From NCBI RefSeq assembly GCF_003334335.1, contig NZ_QOWQ01000005.1: DNA of 64,000 nucleotides; one strand, written 5' to 3'. Below, one piece after another: positions 1-64,000 of the stretch. Made by a program: the position numbers and the translations under genes. The first letter of the stretch is position 1. Every line of letters starts with the position of its first letter. Below the pieces are notes generated by a model. The model made no database searches and had not been told where the DNA came from. It worked only from the letters and a program-made list of their open reading frames with translations. The DNA is from Escherichia coli. GTDB lineage: Bacteria > Pseudomonadota > Gammaproteobacteria > Enterobacterales > Enterobacteriaceae.

Positions 1-151
1 TGTAGAGAAGCAGCTTCCCAATAAATTTCATGGTCTTCCATCCCGTGAAATGCACATAAGGGAGTTATGCACGATTTACGCGCAATCCTCAAGGCGGGAA
101 TGGTGAAAGAGGTGAGACTGCGGCGGTAATTATCTTACCGCCGCCAGTGAA

Positions 152-1543
152 TTACTGTTTTTCTGGTGGGAAAATCAGATTCAGCACGATGGCAGTAATA
201 CCGCCCGCGGCGATCCCGGAGGAGAGCAGGTTTTTCAGCCATTCAGGGGCAAACTGCAAAATCAGCGGCTGCTGAGACACGCCCAGACCAACCGCCAGCG
301 ACAGCGCGATAATCAGAATCGCCCGACGGTTCAGCGGCTCACGAGAAACGATACGCACACCGGAGGCGGCGATGGTGCCAAACATTACAAGCGTTGCGCC
401 GCCCAGAACCGGTTCTGGAATGTGTTGTACAAAACCGCTCACTGCCGGGAACAGACCCAGCACGATCAACATCAGCGCGACGACAAAACCGACATAGCGG
501 CTGGCAACACCAGTCAACTGGATCACTCCGTTGTTTTGCCCGAAGCAGGAGTTCGGGAAGGTGTTAAACACCGCCGAAACAAACGAGTTCAGGCCGTTTG
601 CCAGCACGCCACCTTTCAGGCGTTTCATGTACAGCGGACCGGACACTGGCTGTTCGGAAACGTCAGAGGTCGCCGTGATATCGCCAATGGTTTCCAGCGA
701 AGTGATCATAAAGACCAGCATCAGCGGCAGCAGCAGACTCCATTCAATGCCAAGACCGTAATAGAGCGGCGTTGGCACCATAATCAGTTCTTGCGTCATC
801 GGTTCGTTGCTTTCTGGCAACATGCCCATAAACCACGCCAGCGCATATCCGGCCGCCATCGCAATCACCAGTGAGGCCACGCGTAAGTAAGGGTTACGTT
901 GACGGTTAAGCAGGATAATTAAGGCTAAGACCACGCCTGCCAGCAGCAGATTTTTCGGTGCGCCGAAGGTGTTATCGCTCATGGCTGCGTAACCGCCGCC
1001 AATGGACGTTAACCCAACCTGAATTAGCGACAGGCCGATAATCATCACCACAACGCCAGAAACCAGCGGCGTAATAATGCGGCGCGCCAGATGCAGAACG
1101 CGGGAGATCACCATCTCGGTGCAACTTGCCAGCATCAACGTGCCGAACAAAGCCGCCATCATGGTAGGAACATCAGCACCACCGGTTTTCAGCGCGGTAC
1201 CGCCCATAATCAGCGGGGCAACAAAGTTGAAGCTGGTGCCCTGAATAGACAACAGCCCGGAGCCAACCGGACCCCAGGCCTTAATTTGAATAATCGATGC
1301 CACACCGGAGGCAAACAGCGACATACTAATAATGTGTTGCGTGTCTTGTGCCGGTAAACCCAGCGCCTGGCAGATTAATAGCGCTGGCGTGATCACCGCA
1401 ACGAACATCGCCAGCAGATGCTGACAGGCGGCAAACAGGGTTTGAGGAAGCGGCGGACGATCTTCAAGACGGTAAATCAGTTCGCTGTTTTGAGTCTGCG
1501 CAACCGGTTGCGCATTTTCTGACTCGAGGGTGGAAACAGACAT
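152..1543 (-). CDS. xanP: Xanthine permease, NCS2 family
   Basis: 466-aa ORF 152..1552; recognisable nucleobase:cation symporter-2 sequence; start trimmed to the internal Met (MSVSTLESE...) matching the ~463-aa protein I recall. Confidence 0.8.
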
Positions 1544-1822
1544 CGAAAACAATCCCGTGGTAGCAAAGCGGGCATTTTAGCTGACCGAAAGAGAAAAGCA
1601 AACGTTTGCCACATCCTCATCTAAATATTTAAATGAGATAAATGCACTTTTTTATATAACTTTTGGTATTTTTCTGCTTAAAATCCATGCCATTTGTTCA
1701 TTAACAGCTGAGAATTTGACCCAGGAAAGCATAACTCGATACCCGTCATAGTTCATGAAGTTGCCACTGCGCGATGAAGTATGACGAGTATGAAAGAGTG
1801 ATGCGGATACAAAGGAGTAACT

Positions 1823-3028
1823 ATGTTTCATCTCGATACTTTAGCAACGCTTGTTGCCGCAACGCTGACGTTGCTGCTCGGGCGTAAGTTGGTCCATTCC
1901 GTCTCCTTTTTGAAGAAATACACCATACCGGAACCTGTTGCGGGTGGTTTGTTGGTGGCGCTGGCGCTACTAGTACTGAAAAAAAGCATGGGCTGGGAAG
2001 TCAACTTTGATATGTCCCTGCGCGATCCGTTAATGCTGGCTTTCTTCGCCACCATTGGCCTGAACGCCAACATTGCCAGTTTGCGTGCCGGTGGGCGTGT
2101 GGTTGGCATCTTCTTGATTGTGGTTGTTGGTCTGTTGGTGATGCAAAATGCCATTGGCATTGGTATGGCTAGCCTGTTAGGGCTTGATCCGCTGATGGGG
2201 CTGTTGGCCGGTTCTATTACGCTTTCCGGCGGTCACGGTACGGGCGCTGCGTGGAGTAAATTGTTCATTGAACGTTATGGCTTCACCAATGCGACGGAAG
2301 TGGCGATGGCCTGTGCAACGTTCGGTCTGGTGCTGGGCGGCTTGATTGGCGGTCCGGTGGCGCGCTATCTGGTGAAACACTCCACCACGCCGAACGGTAT
2401 TCCGGATGACCAGGAAGTCCCGACGGCGTTTGAAAAGCCGGATGTGGGCCGCATGATCACCTCGTTGGTGCTGATTGAAACTATCGCGCTGATTGCTATC
2501 TGCCTGACGGTGGGGAAAATTGTTGCGCAACTTTTGGCTGGCACTGCTTTTGAACTGCCGACCTTCGTCTGTGTACTGTTTGTTGGCGTGATTCTGAGCA
2601 ACGGTCTGTCAATAATGGGCTTTTACCGCGTCTTTGAGCGTGCGGTATCCGTGCTGGGTAACGTAAGCTTGTCGTTGTTCCTGGCGATGGCGTTGATGGG
2701 GCTGAAACTGTGGGAGCTGGCTTCGCTGGCGCTGCCGATGCTGGCGATTCTGGTGGTACAGACCATCTTCATGGCGTTGTATGCCATCTTCGTTACCTGG
2801 CGCATGATGGGCAAAAACTACGATGCGGCAGTGCTGGCTGCGGGTCACTGTGGTTTTGGCCTCGGTGCAACGCCAACGGCAATCGCCAACATGCAGGCGA
2901 TCACTGAACGCTTTGGCCCGTCGCACATGGCGTTTTTGGTGGTGCCGATGGTCGGTGCGTTCTTTATCGATATCGTCAATGCGCTGGTAATTAAGTTGTA
3001 TTTGATGTTGCCGATTTTTGCCGGTTAA
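1823..3028 (+). CDS. gltS: Sodium/glutamate symporter
   Basis: 401-aa polytopic membrane ORF, AAGGAG RBS 7 nt upstream of ATG; sequence recognised as GltS. Confidence 0.88.
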   Translation: MFHLDTLATLVAATLTLLLGRKLVHSVSFLKKYTIPEPVAGGLLVALALLVLKKSMGWEVNFDMSLRDPLMLAFFATIGLNANIASLRAGGRVVGIFLIVVVGLLVMQNAIGIGMASLLGLDPLMGLLAGSITLSGGHGTGAAWSKLFIERYGFTNATEVAMACATFGLVLGGLIGGPVARYLVKHSTTPNGIPDDQEVPTAFEKPDVGRMITSLVLIETIALIAICLTVGKIVAQLLAGTAFELPTFVCVLFVGVILSNGLSIMGFYRVFERAVSVLGNVSLSLFLAMALMGLKLWELASLALPMLAILVVQTIFMALYAIFVTWRMMGKNYDAAVLAAGHCGFGLGATPTAIANMQAITERFGPSHMAFLVVPMVGAFFIDIVNALVIKLYLMLPIFAG

Positions 3029-3193
3029 CCGATGAAGCGGCGGTAGAAGTGCCGCCGCAACAAAGACAAATGCCTGATACGCTTCGCTTATCAAGCCTGC
3101 GTATTGATTCATAATTTATTGAATTTGTAGGGTGAATCGCATCCGGCAGGAAGGTAGGGTAACCTGAAATGGCGGTCTTCTCACTGCCGCCTT

Positions 3194-54002: not shown

Positions 54003-55150
54003 TATTGCATTGCTTTATAAGCGGTTACCGCCTCGGATACAACCTCGCTGTTGGCATCAAGACCGGAAATCTGTGCCAGCGCCGCCTGCGGACCTTTGTC
54101 AGCGATCAGTGCTGCCAGTTCCTGAGCCTGCGGATCATCTTCACTGCGGAAGTGCATTGCAGCGGCAATACCTTCAATCAGGTTTTTATGTGGCAGACCA
54201 TATTCCAGCGTACCGAGCAGTGGCTTGATCAGACGGTCGCCAGCACTCAGTTTACGCAGTGGCTGACGGCCTACGCGCTCTACATCATCTTTCAGATACG
54301 GGTTCTCAAAACGGCCGAGAATTTTCTGGATGTACGCCGCATGCTTGTCAGCGTCAAAGCCGTAGCGCTTGATCAATACTGCACCACTTTCTTCCATCGC
54401 ACCTTTTACCACCGCGCGGATTTTCTCGTCGAGAATCGCGTCACGAATGGTCTGATGACCGGCCAGTTTTCCGAGGTACGCGGTTATAGCATGACCCGTG
54501 TTCAGGGTGAAGAGTTTACGTTCGACAAATGCCATCAGGTTGTCGGTTAACTCCATGCCTGGGATGTTCGGCAGTGCGCCTTTGAACTGCGTTTTATCGA
54601 CAATCCATTCGCTGAAGGTTTCTACCGTCACTTCCAGCGGATCGTTAGTTGCCGAAGCCGAAGGCGGTACGATGCGGTCAACGGCGGAATCGACAAAGCC
54701 AACGTGTTCTTCTACCCACGCTTTGGCGTCTTCCGGCAGGGCGTTCATCACATGGCCTTTCAGCTGCGTGGTACCGCGTACCATGTTTTCACAGGCGATG
54801 ATGTTCAGCGGGGATTCATTACCTTGTTCTTTACGTTTCACCAGCCCTTTGGCGATTGCCGGAGCAATACGTTCCAGCACAACCGGGCCAACGGCGGTAG
54901 TGACTAAATCAACCTGAGCAATCAGATCAACGACATCATCACCAATGCTGCTGACAGCATTGACGCCGGAAACGGTATCTACCTGCTCGGTTTCACCAAC
55001 CACATGTACCTGATAGCTATGACGGGCATTCAGGGCATCAAGTACCACCTGATTGACATCGGCAAACGTCAGTTGGATACCCGCGTCTGCCAGCAGTTTA
55101 CCGATAAAGCCACGACCGATATTACCTGCGCCAAAATGTAATGCTTTCAT
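54002..55150 (-). CDS. mtlD: Mannitol-1-phosphate 5-dehydrogenase
   Basis: ORF track 54002..55468 is over-extended through the REP cluster; true N-terminus [17 protein letters not shown] (382 aa). Confidence 0.9.
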
Positions 55151-55159
55151 AGTATTAAC

Positions 55160-55378
55160 CTTCATCAATGTTTTTACCCGAGAGGGCTGGGGTGAGGCTT
55201 TTCCCTCACCCAAACCCTCTCCGTGAGGAGAGGGGCAGCGCCGGATGCGGCGTAAGCGCCTTATCCGGCCTACAAGAACGTGCAAATTCAACAAATTGTG
55301 ATGCATCCTGTAGGCCTGATAAGCGTAGCGCATCAGGCAATTAACCCCACCTTCTCCATGTGGAGAGGGTGGGATTGG
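55160..55378. repeat. REP / GC-rich palindromic repeat cluster in the mtlA-mtlD intergenic region
   Basis: Two canonical REP units (gccggatgcggcg...ccggcctac and gcctgataagcgtagcgcatcaggc) flanked by ccctctcc / ggagaggg palindromes. Confidence 0.7.
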
Positions 55379-55379
55379 A

Positions 55380-57293
55380 TTACTTACGACCTGCCAGCAG
55401 TTCCAGCACTTCATCCACGCTGGTGGTGTGTGCCAGACGCTCGATGACGGACTCATCATCCAGTGCATTGGTCAGGCTGGTGATAACCTGAATGTGCTCG
55501 TTGTTACGGGCAGCAATACCAATCACCAGACGGGCAATGTCATCTTCTTCTTCACCGAAGCGCACGCCTTCCGGGTACTGGCAGAACACGACGCCCGTTT
55601 TCAGTACGCGATCTTTCGCTTCAACCGTACCGTGTGGCACCGCGATAGACTCACCCAGATAAGTCGGGGTCAGTTTTTCACGATCCAGCATCGCCTGAAC
55701 GTATTCCGGCTCAACGTAACCGCCTTTCACCAGCTGCTCGCCAGCAAAACGAATCGCTTCTTCTTTGGTTGCCGCTTTGCGACCGAGGAAGATGTTCTCC
55801 GCGCCTAGCTTGAACAGGTTAGCACTGGAATCGTCAAAGCTGTCTTTCAGGCTGTCTTTTACTTTCTCTTCGTTTGCCGTGTGGCGTTGGGCAGCAACCA
55901 GACGTTCGGTCAGGCTGGTGTACAGGCCGCTGTCGAGGAAGTTGGTCAGCGAAATATGCTGTGCCTGCGGAACCTGGCGCATAGCGCGTTCGGTCAGGTC
56001 ACGGTGAGTGATGACGAGGTCCACATCTGGCGGCAGGTTGTTGATCGCGCTGTTAGTAACAGAAATCTGCGACAGACCTGCATCCTGAATTTTCTTACGC
56101 AGAACGCCTGCGCCCATCGCACTGGAACCCATACCGGCGTCACAGGCAACGATGATTTTACGTACGTGGCTCAGGTCGTTAGTCACATCGCCAGCAGACA
56201 GCGGAGATGCGCCTTTAGACTCAGCTTTCATGTCCTGCATACGACGAGTTGCTGCTTCAATATCATCTTCTTCTTTCACTTTGCTGGTTTTCAGCAAAAT
56301 AGCAGAGACAACGAAGGAGACAGCCATCGCCGCACACACACCCGCGATGTTAGCGAAGTAAGCACCTTTTGGTGTCATCGCCAGTACAGCAAGGATAGAA
56401 CCCGGAGATGCCGGAGAAACCAGACCACCGCCCAGGATAGTCAGCGTGAACACGCCAGTCATACCGCCGAGGATGACTGCGAGGATCAGACGCGGATTCA
56501 TCAGCACATACGGGAAGTAGATTTCGTGGATACCCCCCAGGAAGTGGATGATTGCCGCACCGCCCGCAGACTGTTTAGCGCTACCACGACCAAAGAACAT
56601 GTACGCCAGCAGCACGCCCATACCTGGACCTGGGTTAGCTTCAATCAGGAAGAAGATTGATTTACCCAGTTCATGGGACTGCTGAATACCCAGCGGCGAG
56701 AAGATACCGTGGTTAATGGCGTTGTTGAGGAACAGGATTTTCGCCGGTTCAACAAAGATAGACGCCAGCGGCAGCATGTCATGGACAACCATGAAGTTAA
56801 CGCCCGCAGCCAGCATTTTGGACAGGGCTTCAACAATCGGGCCAATGCCGAGGAATGCCAGAATAGCGAGGATCATCCCGATGATGCCTGCGGAGAAGTT
56901 ATTCACCAGCATCTCAAAACCGGATTTGATCTTACCGTCTACCCAGCGGTCGAAGTGCTTAATGCACCAGCCGCCCAGCGGACCTGCAATCATAGAACCG
57001 AGGAACATCGGCATGTCTGCGCCGACGATAACGCCCATGGTGGTGATGGCACCGACTACGCCGCCACGTTCGCCGCCTACCAGCTTACCACCGGTATAAC
57101 CGATCAGCAGCGGCAGGAGATAAGTGATCATCGGCCCGACCAGCTTCGCCAGCGTCTCGTTCGGTAACCACCCTGTTGGAATAAATAACGCGGTGATGAT
57201 ACCCCACGCGATAAACGCGCCGATATTTGGCATCACCATGTTGCTGAGGAAACGACCAAAGCTTTGCACTTTGATCTTAATATCGGATGACAT
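55380..57293 (-). CDS. mtlA: PTS mannitol-specific EIICBA component
   Basis: 637-aa [34 protein letters not shown]. Confidence 0.93.
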
Positions 57294-59331: not shown

Positions 59332-59790
59332 GGGGGAGGGGGGAGATTATGGAACTTTGCTCCTTGTAAGGACTAATTATTTTTGCATATTACTTCATTA
59401 GCTGCGATGATTTTTCTTTAATATTCATTATGTTAATAAGTTCTGGATGAGTGTGCTCTCATTGGATTTTTTATCCGTCTTGTTCTGCCGCAGGATGAGA
59501 CTATACATCGTCGAGATCGCAATGATGATATGAGTTGTTCCTCCTGCGACGGCTCTAATCAAAAAAGAGCAGGAGTGCTTTTCCATCTATTGCGATGATG
59601 GCTTTATTATCTGAAGGATGACAGTCACATTTAAAAAATATTTAATCTATAGATCACAATGTAGGGTCATGGAATATATGTATACAACTATTTTCTTCTT
59701 CACTTTTAATTATCGTATTCATTATAAAACTAAGTTAAAAAAACTCCTGGAGAGTGAGTTATTAATATATTTTTAAATAAAATTAAGTTA

Positions 59791-60228
59791 TCATTCATCG
59801 ATGCACTTTATAGAATCATCAATGGCCATAATAGTACTATTAACTCTCAATTTTATATTTTTATCATCACTACAAATATTAACTGAATTTATATCAATGA
59901 TTTTTTTATTCTTATCTTTTATTTTATTTACTGTTTCAATGCAATCAGCGGCAAGTTGGAGTGGATTTAGATTTTTCAGATATGGTCTTATGATCTTTCC
60001 CTTACTTAATAAATAGCATGTATAGGATTCGGAAAGTCCAGCATCTATTTTGTACCTCATTATATTAGATAAGGATGTGAGAAATTCCTTGTTATCATTC
60101 GCAGCCATATATGCCAGTCCGAGTTCAGCCTCTGCGGCCTTACAGGCAAAATAGCTTAGTGAACACGCTTTTCGTCCCTCTTTAGTACTGGCTGATATTA
60201 GTGCCCATAATATTGCTTTGTCTGCCAA
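59791..60228 (-). CDS. Hypothetical protein; candidate immunity protein of the degenerate third Rhs module
   Basis: 145-aa AT-rich ORF immediately downstream (minus strand) of a degraded Rhs C-terminal remnant; role inferred from position only. Confidence 0.4.
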   Translation of the reverse strand: MADKAILWALISASTKEGRKACSLSYFACKAAEAELGLAYMAANDNKEFLTSLSNIMRYKIDAGLSESYTCYLLSKGKIIRPYLKNLNPLQLAADCIETVNKIKDKNKKIIDINSVNICSDDKNIKLRVNSTIMAIDDSIKCIDE

Positions 60229-60316
60229 ATCTAACTCTCTCTGAAATTGTCTTGCAGTAACTGCACTCGCAGAAATAGAGAAAAAAATACAATTGTTAAT
60301 AACCTTGCCATATTTT

Positions 60317-60900
60317 TTAGTCCGTAACTGTTAATGTGCTATCTGGCTCTGAAAATATTAACTCATTTAATTTTTGCATGTCATTAGATAAACCAGTTAT
60401 ACAACCCTCGGAACAGAATCGAGGTCCTAAAGACGGACCAAAAGCGTTTAAACAACTATGTATTGAAAATCCATTGCGATTATAAGTTCCTGTATTAACT
60501 GACGGTACTAATCGTATGCCGTCAGGTTTTCTATTGCTTGCTCCCGGGTCATTAACATTCCAACTCCATAGGCCTTGAGGTATTGGCCATCTATTTATAA
60601 ATGTGTACAACGGGGATTATTTTTACATTGCATATTATTACCAGAAGCGACTGGAATACTAAGCACATCATAAAAATTATCATCACATGGTATATCTGAA
60701 ACACACGAAAGCATACCTAAAGTTATGCTGTATAAACAGGTGGCTAATCCCAAGGGGATCGATTCCAGAAATCGGGTTCAACGGATACTGATAAAAATTC
60801 CACCTACCTTCCAGCCCAATCGGAGCCTGAGTGTTATACCGCCCCTGCTGCGGTTAATGTTACCGATAATAGTTATAGTACAGCCCTGATTCATCATCAT
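60317..60900 (-). pseudogene. Degenerate orphan Rhs C-terminal (toxin-tip) remnant
   Basis: About 140 bp (60764-60900) of degraded similarity to the Rhs core 3' repeat, followed by AT-rich sequence with only a 97-aa ORF (60317..60610) and no continuous frame. Confidence 0.45.
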
Positions 60901-60934
60901 ACTACTGCTGCGGCAGTCTGATGAACTATTGCTT

Positions 60935-61396
60935 TTACGGATTCTCCTTATTCTTCCTTCTATCCATTCGCTTTAGCTTTTTGAGCTCTTGAAGTTTGCT
61001 CTTTGCATCAATATTACCGTTATTTACAGCGAATTCCATCCAATAAATAGCTCTATTCAAATTATAATATTCTGATAATGTTGGATTTGTATCTGATAAA
61101 AAGACCCCATAATTAAACTGCGCTGTAACATTCCCCTGAGATGCTGATCTTTCCAAGAATCGCAATTGTTTGTAAATGTTATTTTTAGTAAAGCAGTAAT
61201 ATTGATATAGTCGAAATGATGCCTCTGAATCACCATGTTGTGATTTATACTTCAGTTTCATCAACTTTTCTTCACTTAAATCATAGGTCATTGCTGTAGA
61301 CCCCATCATACTTTCGTTTTGTTTTATTTTCACATCAGCACCATGCAATTGACAAATAAAAGAGAAATAAAAAAATAGTAACAAGCATGCTTTCAT
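60935..61396 (-). CDS. yibG: Sel1-repeat protein; candidate immunity for the orphan Rhs toxin tip
   Basis: 153-aa ORF with signal-like N-terminus and Sel1/TPR-like repeats; immediately follows the orphan Rhs tip. Confidence 0.6.
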   Translation of the reverse strand: MKACLLLFFYFSFICQLHGADVKIKQNESMMGSTAMTYDLSEEKLMKLKYKSQHGDSEASFRLYQYYCFTKNNIYKQLRFLERSASQGNVTAQFNYGVFLSDTNPTLSEYYNLNRAIYWMEFAVNNGNIDAKSKLQELKKLKRMDRRKNKENP

Positions 61397-61407
61397 ACAT
61401 CTACAAC

Positions 61408-62352
61408 CTATCTTATATCACTGGGTTTTTCTGGCGTACCTTGCATATTAGAAATGGGGTGCCCAGATGGCCCATATGTTATCCAATTACCAAGGTCTTT
61501 TGTTGTTATAGCCATTAGATCCTTATTTGAATTAAGGTTCGTTGGTGCTGTTAGCACTGTATCCATTTTTAACTTACCATTAGTTCCTCGCCCCCACCAC
61601 GTCCATAGCGTGTCAGGTCCTATTACATTTGTATGTAACTCTTTAGCTAATTGGCTAGCAAATGAATTTTGTCCTTTACCTGTATTACAAGAAAATAACC
61701 AAACTGTCATCCCATCTTTATAATTCCCATCAAATTTAATTAGATATGCTAGATCTTTAGCTGTCATGATACTGCGCGTTGCGGATTCAATAGATGTGGG
61801 GGAACCATGCCCCCCGATTGTGAAAACGCCTGGGATATTAATCTCATCAGCTACAGAATGGATAAGATCACTTTCGGGGTATAAATTTATATCAACCAAA
61901 CCTTGCGGATCTACATTTATGACCGGATTCAACGGATACTGATAAAAATTCCATCCCCCCTTCAGTCCAATCGGATCCTGAGTGATATACCGCCCCAGCA
62001 GCGGGTCATAATAGCGGTGGCGGTTGTAATACAGGCCGGACTCCTCATCATACTGCTGACCCGGCAGGCGAATGAGCTGCTGCAGATGATGCGGGTTCTC
62101 ATCACTCAGCAGGTTGCCCCATTCATCATATTCTGCGCACCACGCTGTTGCCCCTTCCGTGCTGATGAGCGCCAGCGGCAGGCCGCGATGGTCGCAGTGG
62201 TACAGGTGGATTTTTCGCGCCGGCGTGTACACCGGGTCCATCTGGTTTTGCATCTGCTCCACGGTCAGGCCGCACGATGCCAGCCAGCGGCGGCTTTCCT
62301 CACTCACCCGGTCAGCCAGGATTTCACTTTCCAGCCGGTCGAGCATCTGCAC
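61408..62352 (-). CDS. yibJ: Orphan Rhs C-terminal fragment (core 3' end plus distinct toxin domain)
   Basis: 314-aa ORF; N-terminal part matches the Rhs core end ([26 protein letters not shown]...[16 protein letters not shown]) and is followed by a divergent AT-rich C-terminal domain. Confidence 0.65.
61924..62250. repeat. Rhs core 3'-end repeat, copy in the orphan module
   Basis: About 95 percent identical over about 330 bp to 63675..64000. Confidence 0.75.
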
Positions 62353-62393: not shown

Positions 62394-63236
62394 CTATGAA
62401 CGCTTCAGCTTATCAATAGCGGAAGTTATAATTTCATTGTCATCAAACTTGTACAACATAGTATCTAAAACAGGAAGTAGCGTTTTATCACCTAATTCAC
62501 CCGCAGCTTCAATGATATCATCATAAACAGTATTTTTTTTTAACTCATCGCATAAAACAGATAAAACCCTTTTATCTTTTCTGTAGGAAAGTCCGATTAT
62601 TGCTTCAATACGGACTTCCTCATTTTTATCCTGAAGCATCTCCACAAAACAATCCCTAATATCACTATTATCATATTTATTGATATTTATTGCAAATGCG
62701 GCCCAGTTTCTGACATCTCCATTTGGATCTTTTAACAGATTAATCAATAGTGGAATTGTTGCTTTATCATTGATAACAGAAATAGCAAATGCTGTAGCAC
62801 GTCTGACATTAGTCGATTTATCAAAAGCAGTAATTTGAGATTGTTCTACTATTTTAGGTGAATAAATTGGGTTTTTCTTGCATCGCTGAGCCGTTGACTC
62901 GATTGCCGTAGCTCGAACGCAAGCGCTCTTATCATTCAATGCCATATTGTTCAAAATATTAAAAACATTATCTTCGCATTTTTTGCAAATTTTTATTTGC
63001 CCGAGTATAAATGCTCCGATATCTCTACGGATATAATTTTTATCAGAGCAGAACTCAATTGCCAATCTAACAGCGTCTTGCCCACCTCTTAACTGTAATA
63101 CTCTGGCAGATGAAATCCTTTTCAAGGAATTGTGATCATCAAGTAAGCGAAATAATTCATCATCATTTAGTTTCTTACATTGATTATATAAACCATACTC
63201 TTTACTTGCCTTTCTTTTCTGGTATGTATTTGACAT
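62394..63236 (-). CDS. yibA: HEAT-repeat protein; candidate immunity for the main Rhs C-terminal toxin
   Basis: ORF 62394..63251 trimmed to MSNTYQKRK (280 aa); AT-rich; repeated helical units; immediately downstream of the Rhs tip. Confidence 0.65.
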   Translation of the reverse strand: MSNTYQKRKASKEYGLYNQCKKLNDDELFRLLDDHNSLKRISSARVLQLRGGQDAVRLAIEFCSDKNYIRRDIGAFILGQIKICKKCEDNVFNILNNMALNDKSACVRATAIESTAQRCKKNPIYSPKIVEQSQITAFDKSTNVRRATAFAISVINDKATIPLLINLLKDPNGDVRNWAAFAININKYDNSDIRDCFVEMLQDKNEEVRIEAIIGLSYRKDKRVLSVLCDELKKNTVYDDIIEAAGELGDKTLLPVLDTMLYKFDDNEIITSAIDKLKRS

Positions 63237-63256
63237 TGCAGGAACCTCCACAAGGG

Positions 63257-64000
63257 CTATCTTTTTTTATCGTTTGACTGTCTGGAGTGACGACAATTCC
63301 AGGCTTTCTGTGTGCTTTTTGCATCTTTAGCACTAATATCACCACAATCAATTAGTTCCTGAAGTACGTCACATCTGTCGGGTTTTTTCCCATCACTCCA
63401 GAATCTGTCATTTATTATGTCATTGACACGATCAGTTATCCCTGTGTCTGCAACATTTCCACGAGAAGCTATCATTGTTATATCTAATGCTAGTCCCGGA
63501 TTATTCAATATTAGAGAGTCAAATATTCTTTGTGATGCTGTATCGTTCCACCATTTTGTCAATGCTTTTGCAGCATTATCATCTGCTTGCTGCTGTGCAG
63601 GGCTTTTGGGCCATGGAATTGGCAAGGGGAATGGTCTAGGAAAAACTTCTAACCCCAGAGGATCTGTATTCGTAACTGGATTCAACGGATACTGATAAAA
63701 ATTCCATCCCCCCTTCAGCCCAATCGGATCCTGAGTGATATACCGCCCCTGCAGCGGGTCATAATAGCGGTGGCGGTTGTAATACAGGCCGGACTCCTCA
63801 TCATACTGCTGCCCCGGCAGGCGGATAAGCTGCTGCAGCTGATGCGGGTTCTCTTCATTCAGCAGGTTACCCCATTCATCGTATTCTGCGTACCACGCTG
63901 TTGTCCCTTCCGTGCTGATAAGGGCCAGCGGCAGGCCGCGATGGTCGCAGTGGTACAGGTGGATTTTTCGCGCCGGCGTGTACACCGGGTCCATCTGGTT
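63257..64000 (-). CDS. rhsA: Rhs protein, 3' end only (core end with DPxGL motif plus C-terminal toxin domain); continues past the window edge
   Basis: GC-rich core-end sequence ...[20 protein letters not shown]...DPLGL followed by about 125 aa of AT-rich variable C-terminus; the symbol follows recalled K-12 synteny. Confidence 0.7.
63675..64000. repeat. Rhs core 3'-end repeat, copy in the main gene
   Basis: Near-identical direct repeat of 61924..62250. Confidence 0.75.

Follow-up and report, generated by a model that had tools for sequence, protein, structure and literature searches.

The distal end of the rhsA locus

The window, i.e., the whole stretch of 64,000 nucleotides of Escherichia coli DNA that was analysed (assembly GCF_003334335.1, contig NZ_QOWQ01000005.1), contains lldP, yibL, mtlR-mtlD-mtlA, and yibI-yibH, beyond which the minus strand carries the distal part of the rhsA locus. 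The third Rhs C-terminal cassette of the window, which is the last one in the E. coli rhsA-locus array and adjoins yibH, had been described in the original prediction as a third Rhs module, and its placement after RhsA-CT/YibA and YibJ/YibG bears this description out (Table 1). The cassette starts with a core fragment ending in PxxxxDPxGL, lies 3' of a full rhs gene and the immunity gene of the latter, and is devoid of an N-terminal Rhs body, an arrangement that marks it as an orphan Rhs C-terminal cassette.

Table 1 Features of the distal rhsA locus, in window positions. The open-tip E. coli allele used as the toxin reference is named L002.
Feature	Position	Strand	Basis
RhsA-CT/YibA (first cassette)	63257-63994 / 62394-63251		
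YibJ/YibG (second cassette; yibJ is an orphan Rhs tip)	61408-62352 / 60935-61396		
Rhs core remnant, last ~64 codons (equivalent of K-12 yibS)	60757..60953	-	translation; nucleotide identity; PGAP
C-run at the DPLG cleavage motif, one extra base, +1 frameshift splitting the core from the toxin domain	60754..60757	-	alignment with the L002 allele
Toxin domain, N-terminal half, 52-aa ORF (...CKNNPRCTHL*)	60595..60753	-	ORF list and L002 alignment
Toxin domain, C-terminal half, 97-aa ORF (equivalent of K-12 yibW)	60317..60610	-	Pfam, motif
Frameshifted Imm57-family immunity gene, 173 codons (equivalent of K-12 yibV)	59791..60311	-	PGAP; repaired translation
T7 run (A7 on the + strand), 1-nt deletion from T8 to T7, putting the signal peptide MARLLTIVFFFSISASA out of frame	60281..60287	-	alignment with in-frame alleles
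145-aa ORF, TTG start, residues 29-173 of the 173-aa protein	59791..60228	-	Pfam Imm57
A7 run in the coding strand (T7 on the + strand), in frame here; A8 in K-12 gives a 111-aa ORF	59901..59907	-	comparison with K-12 and probe counts

The feature was known beforehand, both as named K-12 genes and through the RefSeq PGAP label of a Rhs remnant followed by a frameshifted Imm57 gene. Strain PEC1003 matches the window at 100% between 59600 and 61000, and the comparison with K-12 gives one mismatch and one indel across 2.2 kb (99.9% identity). The gene order common to PEC1003 and K-12 MG1655 comprises the RhsA C-terminus, yibA, yibJ, yibG, the Rhs remnant (yibS and yibW in K-12), the Imm57-family gene (yibV in K-12), a small pseudogene (yibU), and yibH. 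In the K-12 annotation, yibS and yibW are pseudogenes and yibV is a 'PF15596 family protein', with yibU next. The K-12 genes yibS/yibW/yibV (b4650, b4651, b4615) share with the window not only locus, order, and flanks (yibG upstream; the yibU remnant and yibH downstream) but also the T7 leader frameshift described below. However, K-12 yibV has an extra A in the A-run and is reduced to 111 aa, whereas the window is free of this second frameshift and retains 145 aa. In RefSeq K-12, yibV is listed as a CDS, whereas PGAP treats it in other strains as a frameshifted pseudogene. A promoter and terminator scan of the region was uninformative, with 10 promoter-like sites against 10.1 expected and zero terminators.

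Lesions of the toxin remnant and the immunity gene

The core remnant is 77% identical at the nucleotide level to both upstream Rhs cores. Its 5' end overlaps the final codons of yibG, with the homology starting at 60953 and running to a degraded DPLG-region motif at approximately 60757, and its frame is interrupted by three in-frame stops (TAG 60904-60902, TAA 60862-60860, and TAA 60856-60854). PGAP accordingly labels it 'RHS repeat-associated core domain-containing protein, internal stop; incomplete'. The lesions of the toxin part were read against the open-tip allele of strain JNE21-003. In this alignment, the C-run at the DPLG motif carries the extra base (attgatccccttggg in the window vs attga-cccgttggg in the reference) that parts the toxin domain from the core, and a 1-nt deletion within the domain (acatttat-aaatag vs acacttacaaaatag) creates TAA 60597-60595, which ends the 52-aa ORF and splits the domain into two frames, so that it is left with no uninterrupted frame. 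The window tip also differs from the reference by an in-frame 9-nt deletion.

Within the 97-aa ORF, the stretch FSIHSC...FCSEGCITG corresponds to the catalytic His and the S-x-G-C motif of L,D-transpeptidase-like enzymes, and an alignment of eight homologous tips shows H99, S115, G117, and C118 to be invariant. The 97-aa fragment itself gives weak Pfam matches (Tlde1_dom, E 0.0083; YkuD, E 0.038). The intact E. coli tip allele, 86% identical to the fragment over the shared part, matches Tlde1_dom (PF10908, formerly DUF2778) with E 1.9e-7. In the structural model of this intact allele (pLDDT 80.5), the 13 best-ranking PDB matches are without exception L,D-transpeptidases or their relatives, with probabilities of 0.60-0.99 and TM scores of 0.41-0.52. 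A PDB sequence search with the toxin tip returned nothing meaningful, and NCBIfam gave no match for either the toxin or the immunity protein in four versions tried. Judged by its motifs and by the domain match of its relative, the upstream remnant is a Rhs tip with a predicted Tlde1/DUF2778 L,D-transpeptidase-like domain, and the predicted fold of the tip, as modelled for the intact relative, is that of an L,D-transpeptidase.

The gene that follows starts with ATG 60311-60309, located 5 nt past the toxin stop. The frame of this ATG reads MARLLTIVFFSLFLRVQLLQDNFRES and stops at TAG 60233-60231 after 26 codons. The leader is encoded at 60311-60261 and is out of frame with the Imm57 domain owing to the deletion that turned T8 into T7; adding back one T yields a 173-aa protein, consisting of MARLLTIVFFFSISASA followed by VTARQFQRELDLADKAIL..., which matches the Imm57 protein annotated in E. 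coli O121 RM8352 residue for residue. Over the span of this gene in PEC1003, PGAP reports an 'Imm57 family immunity protein, frameshifted'. The 145-aa ORF covers the 3' 84% of the 173-codon gene, i.e., the mature Imm57 domain from its twelfth residue on, without the signal peptide, and the first ATG, GTG, or TTG in its frame is TTG 60228, located 3' of the signal-peptide cleavage site. The ORF aligns with Pfam Imm57 (PF15596) over model positions 1-100 of 100 (E 2.7e-48, compared with E 2e-44 for the 173-aa E. coli relative), and all six Cys are kept. The Imm57 model (pLDDT 87.8) is all-helical; Foldseek found no significant match for it in the PDB (best E 0.63), and a PDB sequence search with Imm57 gave nothing meaningful, i.e., no solved structure or detectable structural relative. 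A literature search returned no experimental paper on Imm57; the name occurs in two papers, both of which treat this point computationally. A chance origin of the 145-aa ORF was rejected on the grounds of a Pfam match of this strength in DNA of 34% G+C.

As read from the sequence, the 145-aa ORF is what remains open, at the 3' end, of a presumptive Imm57 pseudogene. For the region as a whole, we consider it highly probable that it is an orphan cassette in decay at the end of the E. coli rhsA array (yibS-yibW-yibV), in which the toxin gene and the immunity gene are both pseudogenes. The original prediction had located the 145-aa and 97-aa ORFs correctly and had called the toxin part broken, which agrees with the degraded core (77%), the three stops, and the two frameshifts. 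It had also held the 97-aa ORF to be the only frame remaining, which overlooks the 52-aa ORF left in another frame, and the 145-aa ORF to be intact, which does not survive the T7 vs T8 comparison, the loss of the signal peptide, and the PGAP call. Its statement that no function could be assigned from the sequence is contradicted by the Imm57 match and by the Tlde1_dom match of the tip relative. The implied origin of the 145-aa ORF from the cognate immunity gene is upheld by its family and by its position directly 3' of a Tlde1-type remnant.

Toxin-immunity pairs and alleles in other genomes

The association of Imm57 with Tox-LD-peptidase was listed by Zhang et al. 2012 (PMC3482391), and the LD-peptidase/Imm57 pairing was noted again in the preprint introducing Tlde1, there named 'Tae5' (10.1101/2020.02.18.954545). 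An exhaustive search with the tip returned 171 relatives, including full-length Rhs proteins of 1,378-1,655 aa. Of three metagenome loci looked up, two, those of the full-length Rhs proteins P0081 (1385 aa) and P0085 (1570 aa) with homologous tips, have Imm57 directly downstream (177-182 aa, with a leader). Reference-genome loci were found with the toxin alignment, and Imm57 lies immediately downstream in 10 of the 15 usable ones, among them toxin-containing open frames of 1,515-1,799 codons in Lysobacter silvestris, Stenotrophomonas maltophilia, and Pseudoxanthomonas. The full-length Rhs relatives, at 36-56% identity, were seen in the exhaustive representative search only; the word-indexed protein search yielded no Rhs of full length whose tip is closely related, in E. 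coli or Shigella or elsewhere, its longest match being 249 aa and its longest E. coli match 231 aa. The check proposed along with the original prediction, a search for full-length proteins homologous to the remnant and for their co-occurrence with the 145-aa protein, was thus run with a positive outcome: full-length Rhs proteins with homologous tips exist, and Imm57 accompanies them at the genome and metagenome loci counted above.

Within E. coli, the tip is kept at no less than 95% identity to the open allele in approximately 190 complete genomes. EC26 carries an open orphan Rhs-CT of about 500 codons with a Tlde1 tip, followed by an intact 173-aa Imm57, and ST648 combines an open tip with an intact Imm57. 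In RIVM_C039227, an intact 173-aa Imm57 lies next to a 3' toxin stub only, i.e., as a genuine retained orphan immunity gene. The idea of the original prediction that immunity is retained after loss of the toxin is sound for the class, as RIVM_C039227 illustrates, but it fails for the window copy, which is frameshifted and signal-less.

The window cassette shares gene order, core, DPxGL motif, Tlde1 tip, and Imm57 with the Rhs Tox-LD-peptidase/Imm57 systems (PMC3482391; Rhs-DUF2778 fusions in 10.1101/2020.02.18.954545). The intact Rhs-Tlde1/Imm57 form is seen in Lysobacter, Stenotrophomonas, Pseudoxanthomonas, and metagenome contigs, and the tips of the closest full-length Rhs proteins are ~45-60% identical to that of the window cassette, which, in contrast to these systems, is an orphan without a Rhs body and has both genes inactivated. 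With Salmonella Typhimurium Tlde1a/Tldi1a, a T6SS effector and its periplasmic immunity protein, it has in common the Pfam toxin family PF10908, as matched by the intact E. coli relative of the tip, and the catalytic His/Cys signature; the target of Tlde1a is peptidoglycan in the periplasm, and a Sec signal is present on the cognate immunity protein. However, Tlde1a is a stand-alone effector, whereas the window tip is a Rhs tip, and the immunity protein of Tlde1a belongs to DUF2195 and not to Imm57. Orphan Rhs toxin/immunity cassettes resemble the window cassette in lying 3' of the main rhs gene, in starting with a core fragment, and in having no N-terminal delivery region of their own, and in some E. 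coli the pair or the immunity gene is still intact. Orphan rhs modules of Salmonella were reportedly treated by Koskiniemi et al. 2014, and acquired interbacterial defence islands in Bacteroidales are said to have been treated by Ross et al. 2019. The window cassette is no example of an orphan immunity gene of this sort, as its immunity gene is inactivated.

The distribution of the alleles was determined in 5,426 complete E. coli genomes using exact matches to 81/82-nt probes centred on each homopolymer. The module is present in 3,708 of these genomes, 3,344 of which carry it at no less than 99% identity to the window. The T7 leader allele (exact 81-mer) was found in 3,207/5,426 genomes and the in-frame T8 allele in 38/5,426, the latter in several backgrounds including O121:H19 and O6:H16. 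At the second run, the in-frame A7 of the window occurs in 2,141 genomes and the K-12-type A8 in 999, and the 145-codon frame is open in about two-thirds of the genomes with this allele class. In-frame 173-aa Imm57 proteins are found in RM8352, 99-3165, EC26, ST648, and RIVM_C039227, and the protein databases hold further truncated Imm57 forms of 104-139 aa. Long-read homopolymer errors as the source of T8 were set aside and the allele was taken as real, given several independent O121:H19 and O6:H16 assemblies and a protein with its own RefSeq accession.

A comparison of the repaired window-type allele with the divergent class of E. coli alleles gives a dS of 0.15-0.17 and a dN/dS of 0.30-0.37; yibH, taken for comparison, has a dS of 0.046 and a dN/dS of 0.03. 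The dN/dS of the Imm57 gene shows past purifying selection and moderate constraint, in an estimate that mixes the time before and after the frameshift. The pattern of lesions looks like continuing decay and not like conservation of the 145-aa frame, with 999 genomes carrying the second frameshift.

Compartment of the Imm57 product and alternative readings

All 12 of the aligned intact Imm57 homologs (from E. coli, a close relative, Paraburkholderia, Lysobacter, Stenotrophomonas, Pseudoxanthomonas, Methylococcaceae, and metagenome contigs) possess a hydrophobic N-terminal leader. Cys is conserved at five or six positions of the alignment, with C124, C147, and C170 invariant and C57 and C99 conserved in at least 90% of the sequences; 'D, SE, C' had been listed as conserved in Imm57 by Zhang et al. 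2012 (PMC3482391). Tlde1, then called Tae5, is toxic only if sent to the periplasm, and the protein conferring immunity to it has a Sec signal and is recovered in the periplasmic fraction (preprint 10.1101/2020.02.18.954545; PMC9638812). By analogy with Salmonella Tlde1a, we infer a periplasmic site of action for the Rhs-linked Tlde1 clade as well, and the six Cys at conserved positions suggest that Imm57 depends on disulfides. Protection by a cytoplasmic 145-aa product is unlikely because Tlde1 toxins have their site of action in the periplasm and the intact Imm57 homologs carry leaders and conserved Cys.

In its probable original state, the cassette would have coded for a Rhs C-terminal tip bearing a Tlde1/DUF2778 L,D-transpeptidase-like domain, a type of toxin expected to attack the peptidoglycan stem peptides in the periplasm of the target cell. 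The next gene, tightly coupled through its ATG 5 nt past the toxin stop, would have coded for the cognate immunity protein, presumably a 173-aa, all-helical, cysteine-rich, Sec-exported member of the Imm57 family. In the window, the toxin gene is reduced to some 64 degraded core codons, with three stops and two frameshifts, and the immunity gene is short of one T of the T8 run inside the region coding for the signal peptide. Any 145-aa product started at the TTG would be expected to stay in the cytoplasm, where it could not meet a periplasmic toxin and its six Cys would remain unoxidised.

According to one alternative, expression is leaky or switchable, with some exported Imm57 produced by -1 slippage on T7 (transcriptional or ribosomal), by the use of an in-frame ATT start, or by changes between T7 and T8, which would make this a low-level or phase-variable gene. 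Both common lesions do lie in homopolymer runs (T7/T8 and A7/A8), T8 is found across several serotypes (O121:H19, O6:H16, and others), and the databases record a 169-aa protein started at the ATT (MNNCIFFSISASA...) with 788 member sequences. However, homopolymer runs of 7-8 bases rarely slip, ATT is a very weak start, and the leader that it would give lacks a charged n-region, and its hydrophobic core is short (maxKD 2.00, against 2.77 in the full-length leader). T8 is moreover restricted to 38 of ~3360 genomes, part of which could reflect ancestral retention or homopolymer assembly errors, and about 30% of the genomes would need two simultaneous corrections. We regard leaky or switchable expression as quite unlikely.

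A second alternative, that of the original prediction, holds that, after decay of the toxin, the 145-aa ORF has been kept as a working orphan immunity protein directed against neighbours carrying the toxin. It is consistent with an open ORF that spans the whole Pfam Imm57 domain, with the dN/dS between the E. coli allele classes, and with the yibV transcript reported in K-12, where the RNA is detectable and 7.9-fold induced by AZT (PMC11228462). A potential threat also exists, in the form of the intact orphan Tlde1 tips of the ~190 complete E. coli genomes, among them the ~500-codon orphan of EC26, and RIVM_C039227 holds a true orphan Imm57. The 145-aa ORF, however, is missing the signal peptide of every intact homolog, the periplasm is where the toxin family acts, and the conserved Cys point to a reliance on periplasmic disulfides; in addition, 999 genomes have the second frameshift, the PGAP call is a pseudogene, and full-length E. 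coli or Shigella Rhs proteins with a closely related tip were absent from the search results, the longest E. coli match being the one of 231 aa. Retained immunity through the 145-aa ORF is, on this balance, quite unlikely.

Very improbable, in our assessment, is a further version in which an orphan Imm57 gene is held switchable by the T7/T8 and A7/A8 tracts, such that slippage during replication, transcription, or translation would give occasional exported immunity as a form of bet-hedging against Rhs-Tlde1 attackers; if true, a switchable Imm57 would explain the open frame in thousands of genomes. Co-option of the 145-aa product to some cytoplasmic role that has nothing to do with Tlde1 immunity, to which only the open frame and the AZT-responsive K-12 yibV transcript (PMC11228462) might point, is the most doubtful reading of all, given that no leaderless homolog was found among the intact genes, that a further frameshift cuts the K-12 version to 111 aa, that no family other than Imm57 is matched, and that the Imm57 fold has no informative PDB match.

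Under the preferred reading of a decaying terminal cassette with two pseudogenes, the K-12 'protein YibV' would be what two frameshifts have left, without the signal peptide, of a gene for a periplasmic immunity protein, and the decay is widespread, the same leader frameshift being present in the 3,207 genomes counted above. The importance of the feature beyond annotation is small, as the K-12 genes are named, PGAP already applies a pseudogene label, and a prediction of the Imm57/LD-peptidase pairing dates from 2012. The natural in-frame alleles and the intact orphan pairs (RM8352, EC26, ST648, and RIVM_C039227) can be used to test the predicted Imm57-Tlde1 pairing.

Two further observations concern the 145-codon frame itself. 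It is still open in most carriers (the 2,141 exact matches at the A-run site), which counts, like the dN/dS between the allele classes and the K-12 yibV RNA, as a point against the pseudogene reading. A weak purine-rich GAGAG is located 6 nt upstream of TTG 60228, and some translation from this start is possible.

The Imm57 leader and its annotation

An Imm57 allele with an in-frame leader (T8) is carried by 38 complete E. coli genomes (H125-H162, e.g., L005 and L006), which span several serotypes, including O121:H19 and O6:H16. The toxin remnant is still broken in all 38 of these genomes. The T8 allele may have been retained from an ancestor, or it may have arisen when the homopolymer reverted. 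Outside E. coli, this orphan Tlde1 tip is present at 79% identity in Superficieibacter sp. 1612_C1 and is followed by an Imm57 gene in which, as in the 1-nt-deletion allele of the window (T7), the ATG and the T-rich leader region lie in different frames. Either a similar site has decayed independently in this gene, or the out-of-frame leader is an artefact of assembly.

The K-12 homologue, yibV, contains two lesions, the leader frameshift and a second frameshift in an A-run. It is nevertheless a coding gene in the K-12 RefSeq annotation, whereas PGAP calls its homologue in other strains a pseudogene; the annotations are therefore inconsistent.

Features of the window and of compared loci
Feature	Location	Strand	Description
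yibJ-equivalent toxin ORF, second module	window 61408-62352	-	314 open codons from GTG
Start of third-module Rhs-core homology	window 60935-60953	-	within final codons of yibG
yibU equivalent (K-12)	window 59428-59626	-	frameshifted fragment, ISAs1-family (H-repeat) transposase
mtlA-mtlD spacer	window ~55150-55380		~230 bp
yibV, K-12 MG1655	L004 8346-8681		RefSeq NC_000913.3: CDS for 'PF15596 family protein YibV' (111 aa)
Orphan Tlde1 tip then Imm57 gene	L013 6380-6700		Superficieibacter sp. 1612_C1

The second module and its junction with the third

In the PGAP annotation, the toxin ORF of the second module is an Rhs pseudogene that is incomplete and contains an internal stop; its K-12 counterpart, yibJ, is also listed as a pseudogene. 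Because the core homology of the third module starts within the last codons of yibG, the stop codon of this second-module immunity gene is core-derived sequence. The C-terminus of YibG (...KNKENP*) falls at the point where the Rhs-core sequence reads differently. The core-derived stop thus marks the recombination junction between the two cassettes.

Flanking sequences

The yibU-equivalent transposase fragment lies between the Imm57 pseudogene and yibH. It matches the intact copy in strain ST648 (tblastn, E 2e-14) and represents approximately residues 96-159 of the 378-aa transposase.

The mtlA-mtlD spacer has the same approximate length in the window and in two compared loci (L001 and L003), as opposed to ~95 bp in JNE21-003 and ST648. 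This longer spacer accounts for the mtlD frame of the window, which in the ORF listing is lengthened upstream to 488 aa, and it is likely due to a putative inserted repetitive element.
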